64,000 nt of DNA, taken from assembly GCF_037042905.1 (NCBI RefSeq), contig NC_087260.1, forward strand, positions 4,898,001-4,962,000. Reading direction: 5' to 3'. The notes under the pieces are model-generated. The model saw only the letters and a program-made list of their open reading frames with translations. It had not been told where the DNA came from and made no database searches. Position 1 is the stretch's first letter, and each line of letters starts with the position of its first letter. This document shows, in pieces, positions 18,383-41,991 of the stretch. The position numbers and the translations under genes were made by a program. Source of the stretch: Lytechinus pictus. Its lineage: Eukaryota.

Positions 18383-21300
18383 GTATTGTATTGTATTGTA
18401 TTGTATTGTATTTATTTAATCACGGTAAAACTTACATTCAGTCATAACAGACTGCTTTTCAGCAAGTCCGTGAACATTAAAAACATGTAAAAGTGAGACA
18501 ATACGAAAATATTCAAAAATATTACAGTAACACATAAAATAAAACATACATAATTAAAATGAAAAACAATGATAATTAAAACTACATAAAACCGCATGTA
18601 CGAAAAGAAATTATAGAAATTCTCTAGCCCCCCCCCCCCCCCGGCAGATGAGTTAGAAGTCGATGGAATTAACTGATTTCATAAATAATGAGAACTGATC
18701 CAATTGACGGGTATTACTTGGTAAGGAATTAAATAATTGAATACCTATATAGAGACCGCCGTCCCTTATTAAATTTGTTTTTGGTTTTTCGAGATTAATC
18801 CTACACTGGTAATTTCGAAGAGAATAATTACTTTTCTTGATACTTATTTTGGAGCACAAGAAAGATGGAAGTTGTCCATGAAGTAATTTAAATATAAAGG
18901 AAACTGCCTGTTTTTTCCATCGCAATTCTAACTTGTCAATGTTCAGAGTAGAATACAACAGGTTGGTACTATATCTATAATCAACTCTTAAGACCATACG
19001 CAGTGCTCGATTTTGAAGAACACTCAATTCTTTTAGTAAAACTTTCCCTGCATTGAACCATACTATAGAGCAGTAATCAAAGTGTGGTTGAAAGAGTGAT
19101 TTGTAAAGCATTATAGCAGTATTCAGACTGATGTACGGCCTGAGCCGTTTCAAACAATACAGGGTTTTTGTCGCTTTCGTCTTAACAAATTTAACATGTG
19201 CATTCCAGTTGAGCGGTGCACTGAGCATAACGCCAAGGTACTTGCACTCTTCCACTCTTTTGATTTTTTCACCGTCAATTTGAACTTGTGCATTTGCAAA
19301 TGGTAATAATTTACGCCTTGATCCAAATATGATAAATTCACATTTCTTAGGGTTCAGTAATAATTCATTACATTTCAACCAGTCTGAAATCCGTGCCAAA
19401 TCTTCATTTAGACAGGAACATAAATCAGAAACATTATCTGAGGAATAGTATATACATGTATCATCAGCGTACATTGAAATACTGCTAAACTTTACAACAG
19501 TAGAAATATCATTTATGAAAATGATAAACATCAAGGGACCAATTATACTCCCTTGTGGAATTCCACAGGTAACTGTATTATAAGAAGAAAATGTATTATT
19601 GATAACTGTTACATGTTTTCTTAAAGTTAAATAGTTTTGGAACCATCGTAAGCTTGACTCATCGAACCCCAGAAGATCAAGTTTTCTTAACAGAATATCG
19701 TGGGAAACCATATCAAATGCTTTCCGAAGGTCAAGCGATACTAATCCAACAGCTTGCCCAATATCTAATTCTTTACGAGTATTTTCTGTAATTGTAAAGA
19801 GGGCTGTATTTGTTGAATAATTGGGGCGAAATCCAAACTGATTATTTGAAAGTATATCATTATCAGAAACATATTTATATACTTGTTTAAAAACAACCTT
19901 TTCCATTATTTTCGATAGTACAGGCAATACGGAAATCGGCCTATAATTAGTAGGATCCTTTAAGTTACCACCTTTAAATAATGGCATGAGCTTAGCCATT
20001 TTCCAGTCTAATGGAACTACTCCCTGATTAAGAGAAAGATTTATTATGTGTAACAATGGTACAATAATATGTGATACTGAATCTTTTAAGATACAGGTAG
20101 GTATACCATCTAATCCTGAAGACTTGTTTTTTGGAATCTCATTAAAACACTTTACTATATCGTTCTGTGTAACTTCATTAAAAGAAAACACAGTTGAGTG
20201 TTTGATTGTTGGTTCAAACGTTTTCTTAGCAAACTGAGCACCATCTTTAAGTTCTTTAGTTATATTTGCAAAATAATCATTCATATAATTTGCGTTGTCT
20301 TTAGAATCAGACAATATACTTCCTCCAATATCAAGTGATTTCAAAGTTTGACTTTTGCGTTTGTTTGGAAGGATTTTACCCAGCAGTTTCCATATTCCAG
20401 CACTATTGCCAGAGTTCTCAAGAATGTTCTTTGTTATATATTCCCTTTTGGATTTACGTCGCTTTGCCGTGACTTGATTGCGTAACAGTCTGTATTCACG
20501 CCAGACATCTGGGTCACCAGATGCGAGCCCTTTCTTTACACTGATCACGAACCTTCATCATCGTTAAAATCTGTTCATTGATCCATGGAACACTTTTCTT
20601 ACGAATTCGTTTACGTTTCACAGGTGCAAACCTATTTAGGATATCATTATACATATTTCGAAAATTATCATAGGCTGTGTTTACATCAACTTCAGAAAGG
20701 ATCTGAGACCATGAACATTTATCCAGTTCCTTACAGAATGAGGAAAAATTCATTTTTTTCAAATCACGATAGGTGACGTATTTGTGCTTAGAAAATGTCA
20801 TTTTAGTTTTTCCCAAACGTGCAACAATCATGTAATGATCACTTAAAGAAACTGTTACAACATCACAGAATTGAACTATGTCATCATTAGAAGAAAATAG
20901 TAAATCTATAGTTGAGGAAGACGTGTCAGTTACCCTGGTAGCTTTCGAAATATATTGTTTCATATTGTAATCATTGGCAAGCGATAATAATTTTTTAGTA
21001 TGAAAGTTATGAGGTTTCTTTGATACATCACAATTCATATCACCAAGTATGATAAAATCAAGACACTGAGAATCCAGATATTGTAGTAACAAATTAAAAT
21101 CATCTAAAACATCTTTCTTTGAATCTGGCGGTCTATACCATGTCACAAGGTGAAAATACATATTAATTCCAAGTGACCAAAATCATGTTCTTGCATTTCA
21201 AATACAATGTTATCTCTTAAATATATAACGACACCACCACCATGTCTATTTCGGTCCAGTCTGATAATATTATAGCCACATATGGAAACTTCAGAGTCAA

Positions 21301-21660
21301 ATATATTGCTATCCAATTTTGTTTCACTGAGAGTTAAGATATCCAAATTGCTTTGTTCTAAAATATGATTAATTTCATCTACATTTTTAAACAAAGTACA
21401 TACATTTAGATGTCCAATTTTCAATCCCTTGTTACAATTCAGTTTTTCAAAGACAAGTGGGATAGAGTCATAATGATTGTCATTTGAAGTTTTTTCAATT
21501 ACACTCGGTCCTTCCGTCTCTCCATACTGATCAATAAGATGAAAAGGCAATTCTCTATACAGACATACATCGCAAATCCAGTCAGTATCCGAATGAAAAA
21601 ACTCAGAACTCAGGGATGAGCATTTAAGATGAATCCATCGAAGACATTTTACACATAACA
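18383..21660 (-). mobile_element. 5'-truncated CR1/L2-group LINE (ORF2: PHD finger - APE endonuclease - RT), two frameshifts
   Basis: CVKC..WIHLKC...WICDVC; GHLNV, LSETKL, YRPP, GDMN, SDH; RT NYRPISVLP, QFGFR, DLRKAFD, GIPQGS, YADD, YLG; 3' AATAAA + (TACAA)n tail; CTTTT duplicated at the junctions. Confidence 0.93.
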
Positions 21661-22500
21661 CTTTTAAGGTCTGAATTAAAAAAAATCAGCTCGCGCTTCG
21701 CGCATGCAAAATATGATAATATCACGTTCTTGATTACAATTACTACAAAAAGTGCTTCATGTGGTTATTTGTAATTCTAACAAAATCATCACTCTGGTGA
21801 GATTATGAGATATGTAGCCTATACTCTTCATGAAATCCTAAAAATATAGTCTTTAAATATCCCTGTTTGGGGTCAATATATACACACATTTCAGCTCGCG
21901 CTTCGCGCGCGCATTGTTTGTTTAGTGAAACAGGTGCGTATCATGATTACAAAAATTTGCTTGTAATGTCCATTGTTTAGGTCTGAATATCAAAACTTTT
22001 CAGCTCGCGCTTCGCGCTCGCATTATTTGATTAGTGAGATACATATTCGTTTAATGGCACAGTCCTTAAATCTCTCTTTAGGTCAGCATATGCCTTGCAA
22101 TTGAGCGCGCTCCGCACGCCCACTAAGTGACTCGAAATTTTTGCCGGTGCCCCCCACGCAGCAACCCACGGTACGCCACTTGAAGCATCAGATTAGCGAC
22201 ATAACTTCCAGACTTCTGTCAGATATGTATATCGCTGGTGCAAAAATACTCTTTCTCGTATTTTGCGCATGCGCATAATGCTATTTTGTGGTCAATCATG
22301 TTGCCAAATGTAGCTGTCTATTAATACTTCACGACGTTAATCGTGACTAGTTATATGTTTGCTTATATTATTAGCATTTTAATCAATGTATAATGTCTTG
22401 TTTCAGATTCAAGTGATGATTTGTAATTTGTGTTATGTATGTGCTTATAAACTTTTAATCTGACCCTAACCTTAACCCTATGTCTCCCTTAAAAATGCAG

Positions 22501-32068: not shown

Positions 32069-32073
32069 CGTGT

Positions 32074-33603
32074 TGTTGCGGCATGAAATATAATAGGGTC
32101 TGAAACCCAAGCCTATTAATGAACAAAGTTACCTGTATGCAAAGTTATTTTATGTCTATTGGTTAGGATCTCACTTTCCTCTCCTGGTGACAAAATGTTT
32201 CTAAATGTACTAATTCTGGTTGGTCAAGTATACCATGCCCAGTGTATAATCAGGTAGCAACAGTAATCCAATTGGTCAACACATTGGCCAAGCATGCAAA
32301 TTAAACATGACTCAGAGATACCAAGAAATAGGAGATACCACAAAGTTATCCCACTTGGCATCAGAAGACAAAGGAAAGTTCCACAGTCAAGACGTGTTCA
32401 CCATTTTGTTATAAAACTTGAAGAAAATTGCATAGATTTGGAGGTCAAACAATTGGTGAGTTGAAATTATATTATTTGTATAGTTATACATATTTGTACT
32501 GATAATCTCGTACTAGTTAAGGGACTTTCTTCTGTATTTAAACCATAAATATTGTTGCTTGTCATGAAGTTGTGATGACTGCATCTCAGTCGAGTATATA
32601 TACTACTCCGCCTAATGTTATATAATACTTCTTTAAGTTAAGAAGGGATAAATTCTGGTTCTGATTGTAATAATGTATATGAATTAATGCATCTCTCTTA
32701 TGTGTAATTAAGTTAATAGACATTACATTACTCTGATTATTAGTATTTGATATACATGTATTAGTAATTCTAAATGAGGTTTCCTAAGAGGATTGCTAGA
32801 GTGAGAGAGACGGAGAGAGAGAGAGAGAGAAAGAGAAAGTTTGACCATATACGTGCACACACACAAGTGCACCTACTATTAAGTCTTTGTTCTGGAGTGT
32901 ACAGATTTGTCAATGGGCAAAAGTTGTGGCTAGGCTGTCAACTTGACGGTTGTCATGGGTACGAAGTTCTGACCATGACTGGGGTCTGTTTACACAACTG
33001 CTTGTGTTTAGTAGTATCATGATTAAAGTTAGTATCGATTTATCTTTGGTATATGATGAGTTTAAGTTCATATTTTAGTTATTATGTTGTATCATCATTG
33101 TATATATACCTGAGCGATATGTATTAGATTGTTATAGTCTTGTTTATGTTTTACTAGTTATCAAGAAGATATTCTGTTGTCGTTAGTTGTTTGATAATGA
33201 TTGTTAATCATGTATTTATCATATGTTTATCTTCTTTCTTATATTTCAGCAAACCACTCACTCACTCAATACACTCGCTTACTACACTCAGTTCATTTAC
33301 TAGCTTCGTTCACTACACTGTTCACTATTCTGTACAGTTGTTCGTCATTTAATTATTCATCTGTATACTTCATTTACGCTCAACTCCGTCAAGTTATTAA
33401 ACTGTTTACATCTTTCGCTTATGATTTGTAAACTGCTTCGATACCTGGAGAATTGTTGATTGCTGTGATTAAATGAAGCATAACTGTATGGAATTGTGTT
33501 CCTGAACTGTTTATTTCGAGTGCGTTCGGAATATCGACCATCAAATTTATAACTACCATCCTACTTTAAACTCCTGTGGCTTAATTTGTTTACAGAAGTC
33601 ACA
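32074..33603 (+). repeat. Complete 1530-bp LTR, inverted relative to the element body
   Basis: TGTTGCGG...AAGTCACA; reverse complement of 33617-35146 (one mismatch seen, 32152 vs 35068). Confidence 0.95.
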
Positions 33604-33616
33604 TAATGGTCCATTA

Positions 33617-35146
33617 TGTGACTTCTGTAAACAAATTAAGCCACAGGAGTTTAAAGTAGGATGGTAGTTATAAATTTGATGGTCGATATTCCGAACGCAC
33701 TCGAAATAAACAGTTCAGGAACACAATTCCATACAGTTATGCTTCATTTAATCACAGCAATCAACAATTCTCCAGGTATCGAAGCAGTTTACAAATCATA
33801 AGCGAAAGATGTAAACAGTTTAATAACTTGACGGAGTTGAGCGTAAATGAAGTATACAGATGAATAATTAAATGACGAACAACTGTACAGAATAGTGAAC
33901 AGTGTAGTGAACGAAGCTAGTAAATGAACTGAGTGTAGTAAGCGAGTGTATTGAGTGAGTGAGTGGTTTGCTGAAATATAAGAAAGAAGATAAACATATG
34001 ATAAATACATGATTAACAATCATTATCAAACAACTAACGACAACAGAATATCTTCTTGATAACTAGTAAAACATAAACAAGACTATAACAATCTAATACA
34101 TATCGCTCAGGTATATATACAATGATGATACAACATAATAACTAAAATATGAACTTAAACTCATCATATACCAAAGATAAATCGATACTAACTTTAATCA
34201 TGATACTACTAAACACAAGCAGTTGTGTAAACAGACCCCAGTCATGGTCAGAACTTCGTACCCATGACAACCGTCAAGTTGACAGCCTAGCCACAACTTT
34301 TGCCCATTGACAAATCTGTACACTCCAGAACAAAGACTTAATAGTAGGTGCACTTGTGTGTGTGCACGTATATGGTCAAACTTTCTCTTTCTCTCTCTCT
34401 CTCTCTCCGTCTCTCTCACTCTAGCAATCCTCTTAGGAAACCTCATTTAGAATTACTAATACATGTATATCAAATACTAATAATCAGAGTAATGTAATGT
34501 CTATTAACTTAATTACACATAAGAGAGATGCATTAATTCATATACATTATTACAATCAGAACCAGAATTTATCCCTTCTTAACTTAAAGAAGTATTATAT
34601 AACATTAGGCGGAGTAGTATATATACTCGACTGAGATGCAGTCATCACAACTTCATGACAAGCAACAATATTTATGGTTTAAATACAGAAGAAAGTCCCT
34701 TAACTAGTACGAGATTATCAGTACAAATATGTATAACTATACAAATAATATAATTTCAACTCACCAATTGTTTGACCTCCAAATCTATGCAATTTTCTTC
34801 AAGTTTTATAACAAAATGGTGAACACGTCTTGACTGTGGAACTTTCCTTTGTCTTCTGATGCCAAGTGGGATAACTTTGTGGTATCTCCTATTTCTTGGT
34901 ATCTCTGAGTCATGTTTAATTTGCATGCTTGGCCAATGTGTTGACCAATTGGATTACTGTTGCTACCTGATTATACACTGGGCATGGTATACTTGACCAA
35001 CCAGAATTAGTACATTTAGAAACATTTTGTCACCAGGAGAGGAAAGTGAGATCCTAACCAATAGACACAAAATAACTTTGCATACAGGTAACTTTGTTCA
35101 TTAATAGGCTTGGGTTTCAGACCCTATTATATTTCATGCCGCAACA
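33617..35146 (-). repeat. 3' LTR (1530 bp) of the BEL/Pao element
   Basis: Preceded on the - strand by the PPT-like TTGGGGCCGGTA (35147-35158); TGT...ACA termini. Confidence 0.95.
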
Positions 35147-35421
35147 TACCGGCCCCAATGGGCTGACTCACCCATAAGCTCATTCCTACCATTAGAACGC
35201 GGCATATATAAACAATACAAGTATGAACAAAACAAACATAACATTATAACAATAATCAACTAGAATGCATATCCAAATGACTTCAAACAATCAATGACCT
35301 GTAGCTATATCTTTCTACATACATATCTAAATCACAATTAAATATTGGGACCCAGAAAACAAAACTCAGAATAAATAGCATTCACTATTATTTACTACAA
35401 CATTAAATAATTTGCCATTAT

Positions 35422-38400
35422 TTAGGGAGCACCCTTCCCTTCCTCCAAAAGGCAAAGTTTTGAAATTGGACGCCGGAAATATTTTGAACCTATCCTAACC
35501 TCGACCTGCCTTACCCTACCTTGCTTGTCTGGATAAGTGGCCACAATTTTCCCCAAAGGCCACTGCCCACGAGGTGCATTATCGTCCGCCACCAAGACGA
35601 GGTCGTCTTGTTCGAAGTTTCTTTTTTCCCTGGTCCATTTCTGTCTCGGTTGAAGGAGTGGAAGATATTCCTTAACCCATCGCTTCCAAAACTGATCCGC
35701 GATGAATTGGACATGGCGCCATCTCCTTCTGCCATAGCTTTCATCCTTTGTGAAGATGCCGGGTGGCAAGGATGGATTATTCCTCAATAGCAGGAGATGG
35801 TTTGGGGTCAAAGGCTCCTCATCCTTTGGATCCATGCTCAATGGGGTGAGTGGGCGTGCGTTTAGGATAGCCTCTACTTCCGTCATCAGCGTAACTAATG
35901 CCTCATCCGACATAACTTGTTGATGAAGTAGGCCTCCTAGTATTTTGCGCACTGAGCGTATTACACGTTCCCACACTCCTCCCATATGGCTGGCTAGAGG
36001 AGGATTGAAGCGCCACTCAATGCCCTTTTGGGTTAAGAGATTCCCAACCTTAGAGTCATTGAGTGCAGCCAGACTTTCCTTCAATTCTTTATGTCCGCCC
36101 TTAAAGTTTGTTCCATTGTCGCTGAATACCTGATCCGGTTTTCCTCTGCGATTGATGAATCTTCTCAGGGCGCAAATGAAGGAATCTGTGTCAAGAGAAC
36201 AGGCAATCTCTATGTGAACGGCTCTTGACGCAAGACAAGTCAATAGACATGCATATCTCTTCACCTCACTGCGTCCCCTCTTAACCATGAAAGGCCCAAA
36301 GAAGTCCACCCCTGTAGAGGTGAACGGTGGTTTATCTGGTGTCACTCTCTCAGCTGGAAGATCTGCCATGAACTGTTCGCCTCGACGGGAACTTCTCCTT
36401 TTGCACTTCATACACCTTTGAAGTACCTTGCGAACAGTGGCTCCTCCTCTGACTATCCAGAACCTTTCTCTTATGGCTGATAAGGTTATGACCGCTCCTG
36501 AGTGCCCAACCTCTTCATGATAGTGTTGGATAATCAAGTCAGTCACATGATTATCTCTTGGGAGTATAGCAGGGTGTTTTGCATCTTCTGCAAGAGTAGA
36601 TCTTGAAAGTCTACCACCAACTTTCAGTACTCCACCAGTGATGATGGGATTCAGTTTGTCCAGAGGACCTGAGGCCTTTTGCCGCCTTGTTGGTTCCCCT
36701 GATCCAGTCATCACTTCTGAAGGAAATGATCTCAGCTGAACTTGTTTAGTAATTTCAAGTTCAGCCTCTTTCAATTCCTCTGCAGTGAGTCCTCGAGGTA
36801 GCCTTGCTGCTGCATCTCGATTTCTCAAGAACATCTTATACCGAAGTACCCAAGCGAAGGCTCCTTTGAGTCTATTCCAGGATGAATACCTGGTCAACAG
36901 TTCTTGCACACTGTCATTTGTTACGACAGTGTTCACATGAACTCTGTCTTTCTTTACTTCCAGGTCATCCTTCTTCAGTTCTCCCAAGATGGCTGGAGAA
37001 GATGGCCAGTTTTCTTCCTCTTGTTTGAGGAAGTCGGGTCCTGAGAGCCATCTTGGATTCGTGATAAGATCCTGAGCCTTCAAACCTCGCGATCCATCAT
37101 CAGCTGGATTGAGTTTAGTGTTCACATGTCGCCACTGGCTCAGTTCTGTTACCTCACGAATCTTAGCAACTCTATTTGCTACAAAGGTATGGAACCTTCG
37201 GCTCTCATTTTGGATGTACATGAGAACAGAAGTTGAATCTGTCCAGTACGTTGTGGTAGCAATCGGTAACCTTAATTCCTCTTGAATCATGTGATTCATG
37301 TCAACAGCTAGTACAGCTGCTGCCAATTCAAGCCTTGGTATTGAGGTGACCTTCAAGGGACTGAGTCTAGACTTACCACAAACAAATGAGCAATGTATGC
37401 GACCAGCAGAATCCTCTAAGCGTAGGTAAGCCACAGCTGCATACCCAAGCTCTGATGCATCGCAGAAATAGTGGAGCTGGTAAAGTACTTGATCTTCAAG
37501 TATTTCTGGTTTGAGACATCTTGGTATCTTTATCTCTGTCAGTCTGGGAAGATCATCAAGCCATTCTTGCCAGGTCTGGAGATCCTTTTCATCCACTGGT
37601 TCATCCCATGCTAGACCTTTCTGGCAGATGCCTTGCAGAAGAACCTTGGCTACCAAGATGAAAGGTGCTAGGAACCCAAGGGGGTCGTATAAAGAGCTTA
37701 CCTTAGACAGTATCCCTCGCCTGGTTGCAGGTCTGTCCTTCAGACTCACCTTAAAGCCGAACCTGTCGGAATCGACATCCCACAACACTCCTAGCGTTCT
37801 CTCGATTGGGAGAGTATCCAGATCCATATCAATTACAGATGGAGCCTTTTCTGTGTCAGGTATTGAGTTAAGCACTTCTCTACTATTACTTACCCATTTT
37901 GTTAAGCGGAATCCTCCTTTCTGCAGAAGACCTCTCAGTTGCTGGACTAGCCTCACCCCATCTTTGTCAGAGGGTACTGATTTGAGGCAGTCATCGACAT
38001 AGAAGTTGTCCAGCACTGTGTTGACGACGTCTTCGTCATATTCATGTCGGTTATCTTCTGCAGTTCTTCTAAGAGCAAATCCTGCGCAGCTCGGTGATGA
38101 CGTTGCACCAAAAAGATGCACCTTCATTCGATACTCTACCGGTTCTGTGGCCAGGTTACCATTTTCCCACCATAGGAAGCGGAGAGCATCGCAATCTTTC
38201 TTCGGCACCTTTACCTGATGAAACATTGCCTCTACGTCACCAACAACTGCCACAGGTTCCTCCCTGAATCGCAGGAGTACACCAACTAAGCTATTGGTGT
38301 GGTCGGGTCCTTGCAGCAATGTGTCATTTAGTGAAGTTCCACGATACTTTGCTGCACAGTCGAACACAACTCTTACCTTGTCAGGTTTGTGAGGATGAAC

Positions 38401-41250
38401 GACCGGATGATGAGGGAGATACCATATACAGGAAGTCTGAAGATTTGCTTCCTTCTTCTGTCTTGGTACCTTCTCCGCATATCCCTTCTCTATATAACCT
38501 TGGACAGTCTCCGTGTACTTGACGGCTAGATTAGAATCCTTCTTAAGCCTCCTTTCCAAGTACTTGAGACGGACTTCAGCCATATGGCGATTGTTCTCAA
38601 GTCCGGGGTCTGGATACTTCCAGGGTAGCCCTACCTCGTAGTGGCCATCGACGAGCTTGATACTTTCCCGCATGAGTTCTCTCGCTCGCATGTCTTGGAT
38701 GGACTCTCCCATCCTCCCTGGATTATCCTCAACCACATGGTCCAACTCCCAGAACTTCTTGACCTGGTCTTGAAGTCTTTCATCTTCTAGCCGGGCAAAG
38801 TTCACATGGAAGGCTGTAGTTTCCTTAGACTTTGTGGTTGGCCCCATTAGCGTCCAACCTAGAGGGCAGCGTATCGCATAAGGTTCCTTCCTTTTCCCTC
38901 TCCTCTGTTCCAGGACCCAAAACGCTTCAGGGGTGTCGGCTCCTATGAGAAGCTTGACCTCCCTTGCGTCGATCGATGGGAACTCAATACCTCTTAAGTG
39001 TCTCCACTTAAGAAGGTCCTTGTTGTCTGGAATCAGAGAATCGGAAAGCGGTAAGGACTTCACTGTCCAGACACGTGGAATATCCAACTCTTCCTTGTAA
39101 TGGATATCCCTGACCTTGAGGCTGACCTCTTCACCTTGCTGGGAATCAACCCCATTGACAGTTGTGAGTTGAATTCGCCGTGGTGACCCTGTCATCCCAA
39201 GGTCTCTTACCAAATCCTTGGAGCAGATTGATATATCGCTCCCTTCATCTAGTAAGGCCCATGTCTGTACTTCACGTCCATTACCTTGGACCTTCACTGG
39301 CAAGACCCTTAGACTTACCTTTCCTTGTGAAGTTACACTGCTGTAACAGTCGCCCGCTTCTCTGCTAGAGGCTTCTTCATCTGAACTACCGGCCCCGGTG
39401 TCTGAGTTGGATTCTTGGGAATTGCTAGACTTCTTGGGGTTAGCTTTGTCAAGTTTTCTTTCCTTGAAGAAGGATGCAGGAGCATGAAGAAGGGTGTGAT
39501 GCTTCCGTTGGCATCCCTTCTCAGTACATCTAGATTTCATCATGCATCCGGACGACATATGCGAAGGTCGGAAGCAGTTATCACACAACTTGTGCTTCCT
39601 GGTAATGTTCCTCCTCTCTTCGAAGGATTTCTTGACAAAGTTCCTACAGTCCTCTAGGTTATGCCGCCCAGAGCAGCAAAGACAACTTCTATCGCTCTTT
39701 GCTTTGGACTTACCTTTACCAGCTGCGGGGTTGCTCTGAGTTGACATTGTTGTTACCTTGAACCCTCCTTTTGGCTTTGAGGATTTGTCAGATGGTTTGT
39801 TTTTCGATTTGCCAATGTTTTGGCCAAACAAATTACTTGATAACTGGGCAGACTCCTCAATGAACATAGTCATGGCTTCAAACGTTGGAGCCATGAACCT
39901 GGTCATCATTGAGTGCGCCCTCCTTGCCCACTCGGACTGCAAGTGGACTGGCAAGAACTGTTGGATGCGCAGAAGGTTTTCTGTGCTATCCATGTCGGCT
40001 CGATAATTTCCTTGCGACAAAACCATCTGACATTTCCTCATGCCGCGAGCAAGGTCCCATAGTGCTTCACCGTCATTTGGTCTGATGGGCTGACGACTTA
40101 GCACCTTTTTCATGTGAGCAGTGGCAACCATGTATGGCTGCCCAAATTGATTTTCTAGAATATCCCTTGCCTTTTGGTATCCGGTCTGGGGCCCTAGGAA
40201 GACACAATTTTCAATGCTATCCTTAGCCTTACTACTACAGTATTGTATTAAATACGTTAGCTTAGCCCTATCATCACTTATCTTAGAAGCTACAGTGGCG
40301 TCAAAGCTGGAAATGAAGGCACAATAATCTAATGGGTTACCATCGAATACTTTCATTTCCGGCTTTGGCATGTTCATCACTAAGTCCAAAGCGTTAAACA
40401 TTTTAGTCATGTTAGACATGGCTGCACCATCCCCCTTGACACTTTCTACCTTTACCCCTATCCCAGTGTATTCTGGGGCATTTGGATTCAAATTTGTTAC
40501 CATGGGGACATGTGCAGCTTCATCAAGAGAATATCTATTATCCCTTGTTTTGACATCATTAAAAGTAGAGTCATTAACATGTATCTTATTTGACTTATCT
40601 ACTCTTACTTGACTTTCATCGTCCGATTCTTCCTCAAGACACTGAAGCTCAACTTCAGCGGCTGCGATGTCCTTGTCGGCTTCCATCGCCGCAAGCTTCT
40701 GTTCAAGCTTCAATTGTTCTTGTTTAAGTTCATGGGCCTTTGCCATGTGCTGTCTATTGAGGCGTGCAACAGCCGCCTTGGCTCTTGCTTCTCTCAGTCG
40801 TGCTGACGATGTCGAGCTCGCTACGGTGAACCGCGATGCCTTGCTACTCGACGATCGGGAAGACCGCACTGACCGCCTGTCGTCATCGACGTCGCCGTCA
40901 ACGTCGGCTGGCCGACCTCCCACGTCAACTCTTTTCTCCGCTGCTTCCATCCAATCTTGTAGTCTGACTCGGAACTCTCGATTGTTCTCGACATTTCTCT
41001 CGAATTTCTCTGACGCAGCCTCCGCTTCTGCTCCACTCAACTCGCTTATGTATTCATCGCTTTTTTCCTTGTACGAGGTGAATACCCTTTCGAGCTGGAG
41101 ATGCTTTTGCACGACTGCGTCCTTATTTTCGAAGTCTGCCATTAAAACCTCTAGTTCCTTGTAGAGTCGGGATAATGTCCCTATGTATCCCCTACATGAA
41201 TGCTTCAGCGAAGTGACGTTATCATCATTTGAAAAATCTGAATCTGCCAT
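35422..41250 (-). CDS. BEL/Pao gag-pol polyprotein, 1942 aa, uninterrupted
   Basis: Gag FDGNPLDY and three Cys/His knuckles; protease LLDEGS; RT YLPHH, RVVFDC, FYVDD; RNase H HYFCDAS, NPADDGSRG; integrase HHCC, GVDFFGP, SDNGTNF, GGVWER; order PR-RT-RH-IN. Confidence 0.97.
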   Translation of the reverse strand: MADSDFSNDDNVTSLKHSCRGYIGTLSRLYKELEVLMADFENKDAVVQKHLQLERVFTSYKEKSDEYISELSGAEAEAASEKFERNVENNREFRVRLQDWMEAAEKRVDVGGRPADVDGDVDDDRRSVRSSRSSSSKASRFTVASSTSSARLREARAKAAVARLNRQHMAKAHELKQEQLKLEQKLAAMEADKDIAAAEVELQCLEEESDDESQVRVDKSNKIHVNDSTFNDVKTRDNRYSLDEAAHVPMVTNLNPNAPEYTGIGVKVESVKGDGAAMSNMTKMFNALDLVMNMPKPEMKVFDGNPLDYCAFISSFDATVASKISDDRAKLTYLIQYCSSKAKDSIENCVFLGPQTGYQKARDILENQFGQPYMVATAHMKKVLSRQPIRPNDGEALWDLARGMRKCQMVLSQGNYRADMDSTENLLRIQQFLPVHLQSEWARRAHSMMTRFMAPTFEAMTMFIEESAQLSSNLFGQNIGKSKNKPSDKSSKPKGGFKVTTMSTQSNPAAGKGKSKAKSDRSCLCCSGRHNLEDCRNFVKKSFEERRNITRKHKLCDNCFRPSHMSSGCMMKSRCTEKGCQRKHHTLLHAPASFFKERKLDKANPKKSSNSQESNSDTGAGSSDEEASSREAGDCYSSVTSQGKVSLRVLPVKVQGNGREVQTWALLDEGSDISICSKDLVRDLGMTGSPRRIQLTTVNGVDSQQGEEVSLKVRDIHYKEELDIPRVWTVKSLPLSDSLIPDNKDLLKWRHLRGIEFPSIDAREVKLLIGADTPEAFWVLEQRRGKRKEPYAIRCPLGWTLMGPTTKSKETTAFHVNFARLEDERLQDQVKKFWELDHVVEDNPGRMGESIQDMRARELMRESIKLVDGHYEVGLPWKYPDPGLENNRHMAEVRLKYLERRLKKDSNLAVKYTETVQGYIEKGYAEKVPRQKKEANLQTSCIWYLPHHPVVHPHKPDKVRVVFDCAAKYRGTSLNDTLLQGPDHTNSLVGVLLRFREEPVAVVGDVEAMFHQVKVPKKDCDALRFLWWENGNLATEPVEYRMKVHLFGATSSPSCAGFALRRTAEDNRHEYDEDVVNTVLDNFYVDDCLKSVPSDKDGVRLVQQLRGLLQKGGFRLTKWVSNSREVLNSIPDTEKAPSVIDMDLDTLPIERTLGVLWDVDSDRFGFKVSLKDRPATRRGILSKVSSLYDPLGFLAPFILVAKVLLQGICQKGLAWDEPVDEKDLQTWQEWLDDLPRLTEIKIPRCLKPEILEDQVLYQLHYFCDASELGYAAVAYLRLEDSAGRIHCSFVCGKSRLSPLKVTSIPRLELAAAVLAVDMNHMIQEELRLPIATTTYWTDSTSVLMYIQNESRRFHTFVANRVAKIREVTELSQWRHVNTKLNPADDGSRGLKAQDLITNPRWLSGPDFLKQEEENWPSSPAILGELKKDDLEVKKDRVHVNTVVTNDSVQELLTRYSSWNRLKGAFAWVLRYKMFLRNRDAAARLPRGLTAEELKEAELEITKQVQLRSFPSEVMTGSGEPTRRQKASGPLDKLNPIITGGVLKVGGRLSRSTLAEDAKHPAILPRDNHVTDLIIQHYHEEVGHSGAVITLSAIRERFWIVRGGATVRKVLQRCMKCKRRSSRRGEQFMADLPAERVTPDKPPFTSTGVDFFGPFMVKRGRSEVKRYACLLTCLASRAVHIEIACSLDTDSFICALRRFINRRGKPDQVFSDNGTNFKGGHKELKESLAALNDSKVGNLLTQKGIEWRFNPPLASHMGGVWERVIRSVRKILGGLLHQQVMSDEALVTLMTEVEAILNARPLTPLSMDPKDEEPLTPNHLLLLRNNPSLPPGIFTKDESYGRRRWRHVQFIADQFWKRWVKEYLPLLQPRQKWTREKRNFEQDDLVLVADDNAPRGQWPLGKIVATYPDKQGRVRQVEVRIGSKYFRRPISKLCLLEEGKGAP

Positions 41251-41280
41251 CCTTATTATTGTCTGGAAATTGCAAACTTA

Positions 41281-41986
41281 TGTGACTTCTGTAAACAAAT
41301 TAAGCCACAGGAGTTTAAAGTAGGATGGTAGTTATAAATTTGATGGTCGATATTCCGAACGCACTCGAAATAAACAGTTCAGGAACACAATTCCATACAG
41401 TTATGCTTCATTTAATCACAGCAATCAACAATTCTCCAGGTATCGAAGCAGTTTACAAATCATAAGCGAAAGATGTAAACAGTTTAATAACTTGACGGAG
41501 TTGAGCGTAAATGAAGTATACAGATGAATAATTAAATGACGAACAACTGTACAGAATAGTGAACAGTGTAGTGAACGAAGCTAGTAAATGAACTGAGTGT
41601 AGTAAGCGAGTGTATTGAGTGAGTGAGTGGTTTGCTGAAATATAAGAAAGAAGATAAACATATGATAAATACATGATTAACAATCATTATCAAACAACTA
41701 ACGACAACAGAATATCTTCTTGATAACTAGTAAAACATAAACAAGACTATAACAATCTAATACATATCGCTCAGGTATATATACAATGATGATACAACAT
41801 AATAACTAAAATATGAACTTAAACTCATCATATACCAAAGATAAATCGATACTAACTTTAATCATGATACTACTAAACACAAGCAGTTGTGTAAACAGAC
41901 CCCAGTCATGGTCAGAACTTCGTACCCATGACAACCGTCAAGTTGACAGCCTAGCCACAACTTTTGCCCATTGACAAATCTGTACA
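41281..41986 (-). repeat. 5' LTR truncated to its downstream 706 bp
   Basis: Matches 33617-34322 wherever compared; the upstream 824 bp of the LTR are missing. Confidence 0.93.
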
Positions 41987-41991
41987 CGTGT

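Follow-up and report, generated by a model that had tools for sequence, protein, structure and literature searches.

The 13 bp at positions 33604-33616 of the window (the whole 64,000-nt stretch of Lytechinus pictus DNA that was analyzed) read TAATGGTCCATTA directly in the window sequence and form the junction of two tail-to-tail 1,530-bp LTRs within one BEL/Pao-type insertion. We favor, with modest confidence, the interpretation that these bases record an error of reverse transcription: a plus-strand LTR copy ran off a primer-free cDNA end, jumped to the CCA end of tRNA-Tyr, copied 7 bases, and folded back. The original prediction had proposed the remnant of a tRNA primer. Non-canonical tRNA priming may have occurred in this one event; as the regular primer of the element, however, a tRNA is probably to be disfavored on sequence grounds, because the leader pairs instead with the joint of a predicted splice in the element's own LTR, starting right after the TAA that follows the LTR.

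The insertion spans 32074-41986 (approximately 9.9 kb) and is bracketed by a 5-bp target duplication, CGTGT; siblings of the element have 5-bp target duplications as well. That CGTGT flanks the full 9.9 kb points to a single insertion made by integrase. Its features, with the strand of the window on which each is read, are as follows.

32069-32073, +, target-site duplication CGTGT, left copy
32074-33603, +, LTR-A, the extra inverted LTR, 1,530 bp, starting exactly at the TGT of the LTR
32450-32461, +, end of exon 1 (CAATTG) and splice donor (GTGAGT) in LTR-A
32456-33249, +, predicted 794-nt intron inside the LTR, precisely missing in a copy on C2
33244-33254, +, splice acceptor (TTTCAG) and start of exon 2 (CAAAC); the joint CAATTG/CAAAC is the predicted self-primer
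33604-33606, +, TAA, which separates the LTR end from the primer site and is carried on the cDNA end; same as 41278-41280 (-)
33607-33613, +, TGGTCCA, likely copied in reverse from the 3'-terminal 7 nt of mature host tRNA-Tyr, judged by host tRNA-Tyr ends and by analogy with an insertion on C6
33614-33616, +, TTA, read from the sequence as the mirror copy of TAA after snap-back
33617-35146, -, LTR-B, the true 3' LTR of the element, 1,530 bp, intron kept
35147-35158, -, polypurine-tract region TTGGGGCCGGTA
35188-35194, -, TAATGGT in the 3' UTR, 42 nt upstream of the 3' LTR, a rival template for the spacer by sequence
35422-41250, -, uninterrupted Gag-Pol ORF with Pao-type domains, open frame of 1,951 aa, first ATG at 41250
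41267-41277, -, predicted self-primer binding site GTTTGCAATT(T), 10/11 bases pairing with the splice joint
41278-41280, -, TAA between 5' LTR and primer site
41281-41986, -, 5' LTR without its first 824 bp, the last 706 bp left, its start being an internal TGT at LTR position 825, within the intron
41987-41991, +, target-site duplication CGTGT, right copy

The Gag-Pol frame, which follows a leader of TAA plus 30 nt after the 5' LTR, matched Peptidase_A17 (E 8e-49), Integrase_H2C2, rve, and DUF5641. Pol, an integrase located after RT, LTRs bounded by TG..CA, a short target duplication, and a polypurine tract were all found, as in BEL/Pao elements. We call the element BEL/Pao-type by its Pol and not a typical member, because TGG was lacking from the first 9 nt of the leader in 34/34 related leaders. 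The missing 824 bp of the 5' LTR were probably deleted later, between two GTGT microhomologies; less simply, the short LTR could stem from a cryptic integrase end at TGTACA. A reading of the 706-bp 5' LTR as R-U5 up to the transcription start was dropped, position 825 falling inside the intron. Just upstream of the polypurine tract, a hairpin (window 35157-35184, -) was observed in most families, although individually it is weak (median z of -1.1 vs. +0.2 for a control stretch, 23 rows).

The palindrome around the spacer has arms of 1,536 nt (32074-33609 and 33611-35146), each composed of the 1,530-bp LTR plus TAATGG. A single mismatch separates the arms, at LTR position 79, which is A in arm A but G in arm B and in the three sibling LTRs matched. 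Re-reading of the sequence and of the palindrome center confirmed that the 13-bp spacer is present and palindromic as described; the proposed 1-nt loop, in contrast, cannot fold, and the predicted DNA hairpin of the spacer has a 3-nt loop and a 2-bp stem. We parse the spacer as leader TAA, then TGGTCCA, then a snap-back. Two further statements were borne out: the TAA corresponds to the three bases after the 5' LTR (ACA-TAA-GTTT), and TGG is missing from the leader of the element. CCA does adjoin templated sequence, as had been noted, but the reading had to be corrected, in that the tRNA sense is the minus strand, TGGA-CCA-TTA-TGTGAC, with A before CCA, and not (T)CCA on the plus strand. Across the window, TGG follows TAA in 1.4% of cases.

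Host tRNA-Tyr-type genes were located by an anticodon-arm pattern, which gave 47 matches, and the GGTGGA end was present in 10/10 of those fetched; two patterns for the tRNA-Tyr 3' end found nothing. The mature tRNA-Tyr end with CCA is TGGA-CCA, and its reverse copy, TGGTCCA, is the spacer core. The match is 7/7 nt, 4 of them independent, and the copy is too short to reach position 58. The independent information in the spacer amounts to four bases (TGGT), with CCA-TTA dictated by symmetry. The spacer core is thus likely, not proven, to be a copy of the tRNA-Tyr end, because only TGGT is independent and TAATGGT also occurs in the 3' UTR. The tRNA origin of the TGG/CCA is nonetheless supported by the tRNA-Tyr-type ends (10/10) and by a whole tRNA at the same position in a sister structure on C6.

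This sister structure is a second fold-back insertion (G000:C6:1001637-1011956; L191, L102) of a distant family, with tail-to-tail LTRs and no 5' LTR. Its spacer (at about 1003104) consists of the LTR end, TCA (the first three leader bases), and TGG plus a 74-nt reverse copy of tRNA-Lys(CTT) with CCA, so that the tRNA copies of C6 and of the window stand at the same LTR+3 point. The tRNA-Lys copy matched the gene at 73/74 nt, the sole difference being A58 to T; A occupies position 58 in 40 of the 41 genomic tRNA-Lys matches, and T only in the C6 copy. Misreading at methylated A58 is an established signature of a mature tRNA being copied, and the A58 to T change is presumably a misreading of m1A58. 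The C6 strand re-enters the inverted LTR via a 2-nt GG match. At its leader end, the same insertion folds back a second time, over 1,743 bp, with the minus strand turning within leader bases 2-4; the insertion is flanked by AGGGG inside a tandem repeat. The C6 fold-back is 1 of the 22 LTR ends listed for its family. In that family, no complement to tRNA-Lys was found (longest match 8 nt vs. a shuffled mean of 9), and a split or internal pairing with tRNA-Lys was likewise looked for and rejected.

A third capture is located on C13, where a whole tRNA-Asp with CCA was captured mid-pol (L195:6822-6896) with 1 nt of microhomology, which indicates that these enzymes pick up tRNA ends away from any primer site. 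Each of the three captures is a different tRNA. Other aberrant ends stop after the bases that precede the pairing motif: CGACA twice and CGACAG once in a third family, and CAAA and AAAA in a fourth. These CGACA, CAAA, and AAAA ends are weaker evidence, because CGACA has CA at its own end and some genuine target duplications happen to look like leaders. A poly(A) tail at the LTR end was considered and rejected, as the AAAA of the leader can account for the A-runs at C13. A genome-wide pattern for tRNA with CCA beside an LTR returned 100 matches compared to 45 for the control, mostly unrelated repeats and tRNA retrocopies; the pattern misses C6 by design and led to C13. The C13 region as a whole (G000:C13:15786000-15821000; L192-L196) is a scrambled BEL/Pao cluster with many inversions, and an LTR end in it is followed by CAAA and a short snap-back, TG-ATA-CCA-TTT.

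Copies of the window family were searched for a conventional primer site. An exact search of the genome gave 8 LTR ends, and a DNA search gave 14 matches. TGG followed the LTR at 0/7 LTR-leader junctions of the family, including diverged C2 and C17 copies, and all 7 start TAAGT. TGG was likewise present in the first 9 nt of 0/34 leaders of a wider group of related elements, namely 32 of 38 related elements fetched (those with a delimited LTR pair), the window copy, and one sibling. Two families delimited later lack it as well (L073, L079, and L097 were not delimited), and TGG is found at 0/8 junctions of the C6 family. Among 80 metagenome contigs, 6 have a clear LTR-leader boundary ending in ACA, and TGG is next in 0/6. 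The absence of TGG in the family and in its relatives, with RT-RNase H identity down to 33% in a tree composed of elements of the L. pictus genome only, indicates that there is no canonical primer site there. A donor copy with TAATGG as its genomic flank would have been a trivial source of the spacer; it found no support, TAATGG following 0/4 of the other 3' ends of the family. Near-identical copies in 2 groups (L260-L280 and L192-L196) differ in the base immediately following the LTR (TCA/ACA; TAAA/CAAA/AAAA), which suggests an error-prone step at the junction. One sibling 3' LTR (G000:C1:34346261-34357000; L029, L030) is interrupted near LTR position 714 by about 1.17 kb of inserted sequence, and a solo LTR of the family on C26 has two insertions.

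What the leader does pair with is a predicted splice joint. The LTR donor CAATTG/GTGAGT and acceptor TTTCAG/CAAAC enclose 794 nt, and splicing would create the joint CAATTGCAAAC, to which the leader is perfectly complementary over the 11 bases that follow TAA in siblings and over 10 in the window copy. Pairing was 11/11 for the C7, C9, and C1 copies, the window copy alone having 10, and it begins at exactly the base that follows TAA. A diverged copy on C2 (G000:C2:22202319-22202800; L026, L033) has an LTR lacking precisely the intron. With consensus splice sites required, pairing of at least 10 nt was found in 19/26 families compared to 30/5,200 shuffled leaders; under these strict rules splice-joint pairing was not found in 7/26 families. 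With looser splice sites, pairing of at least 11 nt was found in 21/29 own pairs vs. 40/812 crossed pairs, some rows being close kin. Of the metagenome contigs with a delimited LTR, 3/4 showed an 11-14-nt match to the splice joint. The predicted primers end at TAA, TCA, CGACA, and AAAA, which are the points where tRNA copies begin and aberrant ends stop; the tRNA-copy starts and aberrant ends were mapped before the splice test.

Pairing of the Tf1 type with the unspliced LTR gave a negative result, the own leader ranking best in 2/22 only, and a later explanation is that the intron interrupts the complementary bases. Three RNA runs, at a low depth of 18-23 reads each, contained no pile-up of starts and no joint at the intron. 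Some RNA reads have loose ends resembling the C2 copy. TATAAAA is located 46 nt upstream of the donor in the window family, and a TATA-like word was found in 3/26 families. Two other ideas were set aside: the leader as a T-loop mimic, a loose post-hoc motif (24/25 leaders vs. a shuffle mean of 6.9) superseded by the splice-joint pairing, and a displaced primer site in the 3' UTR, the motif of which is not conserved.

The scar could have arisen as follows. Priming would normally be by the element's own spliced 5' end, in a Tf1-like manner, and after removal of the primer the cDNA would end at LTR+TAA. A strong-stop strand made after primer removal would have no primer copy for transfer, and reverse transcriptase would then jump to the 3' end of a tRNA; we infer that LTR-A is this plus-strand strong-stop DNA. 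Because the TGGA-CCA end is self-complementary, TGGTCCA could snap back after 7 copied bases (2 bp, 3-nt loop), which accounts for the otherwise impossible 1-nt loop, and the hairpin would cap the end. Read-through of the hairpin by the main plus strand would add the extra inverted LTR and create another U3-type end, for integrase to insert. The tRNA stands exactly at the predicted primer-DNA boundary, so that the spacer would be a by-product of copying by which the start site is marked. The 5' end of the window copy has a normal junction of LTR, TAA, and primer site, which fits a self-primed minus strand.

The strongest competitor, which we consider clearly less probable than the jump but still a real possibility, is that tRNA-Tyr was a substitute primer in this event, with the minus strand begun unpaired at the authentic site, 7 bases copied, and a fold-back. 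Jumping and substitute priming result in identical sequence. The minus strand TGGA-CCA-TTA-TGTGAC is exactly a primer plus templated DNA, attachment of the tRNA is exact and without homology in two families, and a spurious tRNA primer has been proposed for MMLV (Colicelli and Goff, as summarized in the available part of PMC12220202). The C6 copy, with no 5' LTR and a leader fold-back, is as expected if there was no primer copy for the second transfer. Compared with its siblings, the window copy has one fewer pairing base at the primer site, which could have favored a substitute primer; this weaker site and the missing 5' LTR at C6 fit substitute priming. However, there would be no pairing to keep the tRNA in register, tRNA-Lys having no complement in the C6 family, and the three captures are three different tRNAs. 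A tRNA-primed minus strand alone also cannot yield the normal 5' junction of the window copy, and a second molecule would be needed. The intact 5' junction and the mid-pol tRNA capture favor jumping. More speculatively, and with slightly less confidence than we give to a substitute primer here, there may be two priming modes at one structure-defined site, namely the splice-built self-primer and, on its failure, any tRNA CCA end without base pairing; the scars would then be direct records of the second mode and of a bridge between tRNA priming and self-priming.

That no tRNA was involved appears improbable. A TAA-ended strand would have been mis-transferred to the TAATGGT of the 3' UTR, or would have gained untemplated bases, before the hairpin was joined. 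The 7-nt match lies 42 nt from the 3' LTR, and TGG follows 5/144 TAA sites on the sense strand. At that template, however, the next base is A and not C, leaving the snap-back without a starting base pair; a leader triplet plus TGG occurred in the last 120 nt in only 2/33 rows, both of the window family; and the C6 sister structure holds an unmistakable tRNA.

An assembly or library artefact, which the near-identity of the arms might suggest, is very improbable, as the 5-bp duplication flanks the full 9.9-kb insertion, arm A begins precisely with the first LTR base, the arms differ at one base, and the second such structure holds a reverse-transcribed mature tRNA. A search for the empty site via paralogues of the left flank found 0/14 that continued into the right flank. 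Least probable of all is that priming took place on the RNA of a co-packaged sibling bearing a canonical TAA-TGG primer site. This reading, part of the original prediction, would give the same junction and could involve copies missed by the assembly, but is unsupported by the 0/7 family junctions, 0/34 related leaders, and 0/8 C6-family junctions with TGG.

The self-priming of Tf1 and Tf2 of Schizosaccharomyces pombe, which are Ty3/gypsy elements, involves an 11-base primer site complementary to the transcript of the element itself, with RNase H as the presumed agent of primer release (available part of PMC7175516). The predicted primer site of the window element similarly complements its own LTR transcript, but only once the intron is spliced out (over 11 nt in siblings and 10 nt in the window copy), and its Pol is Pao-type and not Ty3/gypsy; it is predicted to work like Tf1 without being a Tf1/sushi member. 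According to the available part of PMC12220202, tRNA-Gly was found between the LTRs of circular MMLV DNA (Colicelli and Goff 1986), tRNA-Asp/Glu inserts occur in HIV-1 (HITME), and tRNA-Gly occurs beside an HIV provirus. As far as that text goes, these cases resemble ours in that a non-cognate mature tRNA with CCA, minus its first few bases, is reverse-copied beside an LTR end. Those viruses have a canonical tRNA primer site, whereas the window element has none, and here the copy abuts the boundary predicted for a self-primer, and what has been fixed, in an animal genome, is an inverted LTR in tail-to-tail orientation.

In the ICTV profile of Belpaoviridae, the primer site is 18 nt long and complementary to tRNA-Arg or tRNA-Gly, LTRs measure 0.2-1.2 kb, and the start of BEL/Pao reverse transcription is described as poorly understood, with a tRNA primer site assumed to be needed (PMC8742986). 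The window element shares the single gag-pol ORF, Pao-type Pol domains, LTRs, and polypurine tract, but lacks the 18-nt tRNA site and has an LTR of 1,530 bp, 794 of them predicted intron. Fungal GalEa Copia elements and bivalve TRIMs have no tRNA primer site after the 5' LTR (available parts of PMC5445492 and PMC6934838); according to the same parts, they differ in carrying a conserved hairpin of unknown role, with no primer or splice joint identified for them. A literature search, with most subscription journals, Repbase, and supplements outside its scope, found no report of BEL/Pao elements that lack a primer site or are splice-primed, nor of such scars, and the available portions of PMC554778, PMC3118150, PMC2774666, PMC9094657, and PMC8220671 held nothing specific on BEL/Pao primer sites.

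These data describe a wide set of BEL/Pao-type families without the assumed tRNA primer site. The first base to be copied is marked by abortive cDNAs preserved in the genome, and it coincides exactly with the expected end of a splice-built self-primer; the fold-back scars, with their exact junctions named, offer physical support for self-priming that is independent of the pairing statistics. Finding TGG or a copied tRNA next to an LTR does not by itself establish that a tRNA routinely primes the element. As for the spacer, it is a by-product of a single event, yet an informative one.

Several other structures were observed. Tandem BEL/Pao arrays that share LTRs, along with tandem partial duplications, are present at G000:C6:18572000-18602000, C8:26828000-26848000, and C5:35544000-35564000. 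A 573-bp LTR pair without a BEL/Pao Pol match (L256; G000:C11:1834000-1843999) has a near-whole tRNA-Leu copy where a primer site would be, and many other reverse copies of tRNA-Leu and tRNA-Ser with CCA occur elsewhere in the genome. In the window itself, a LINE-like element at 18653-21685 (-) has three frames with matches to a PHD finger, an endonuclease, and a reverse transcriptase.
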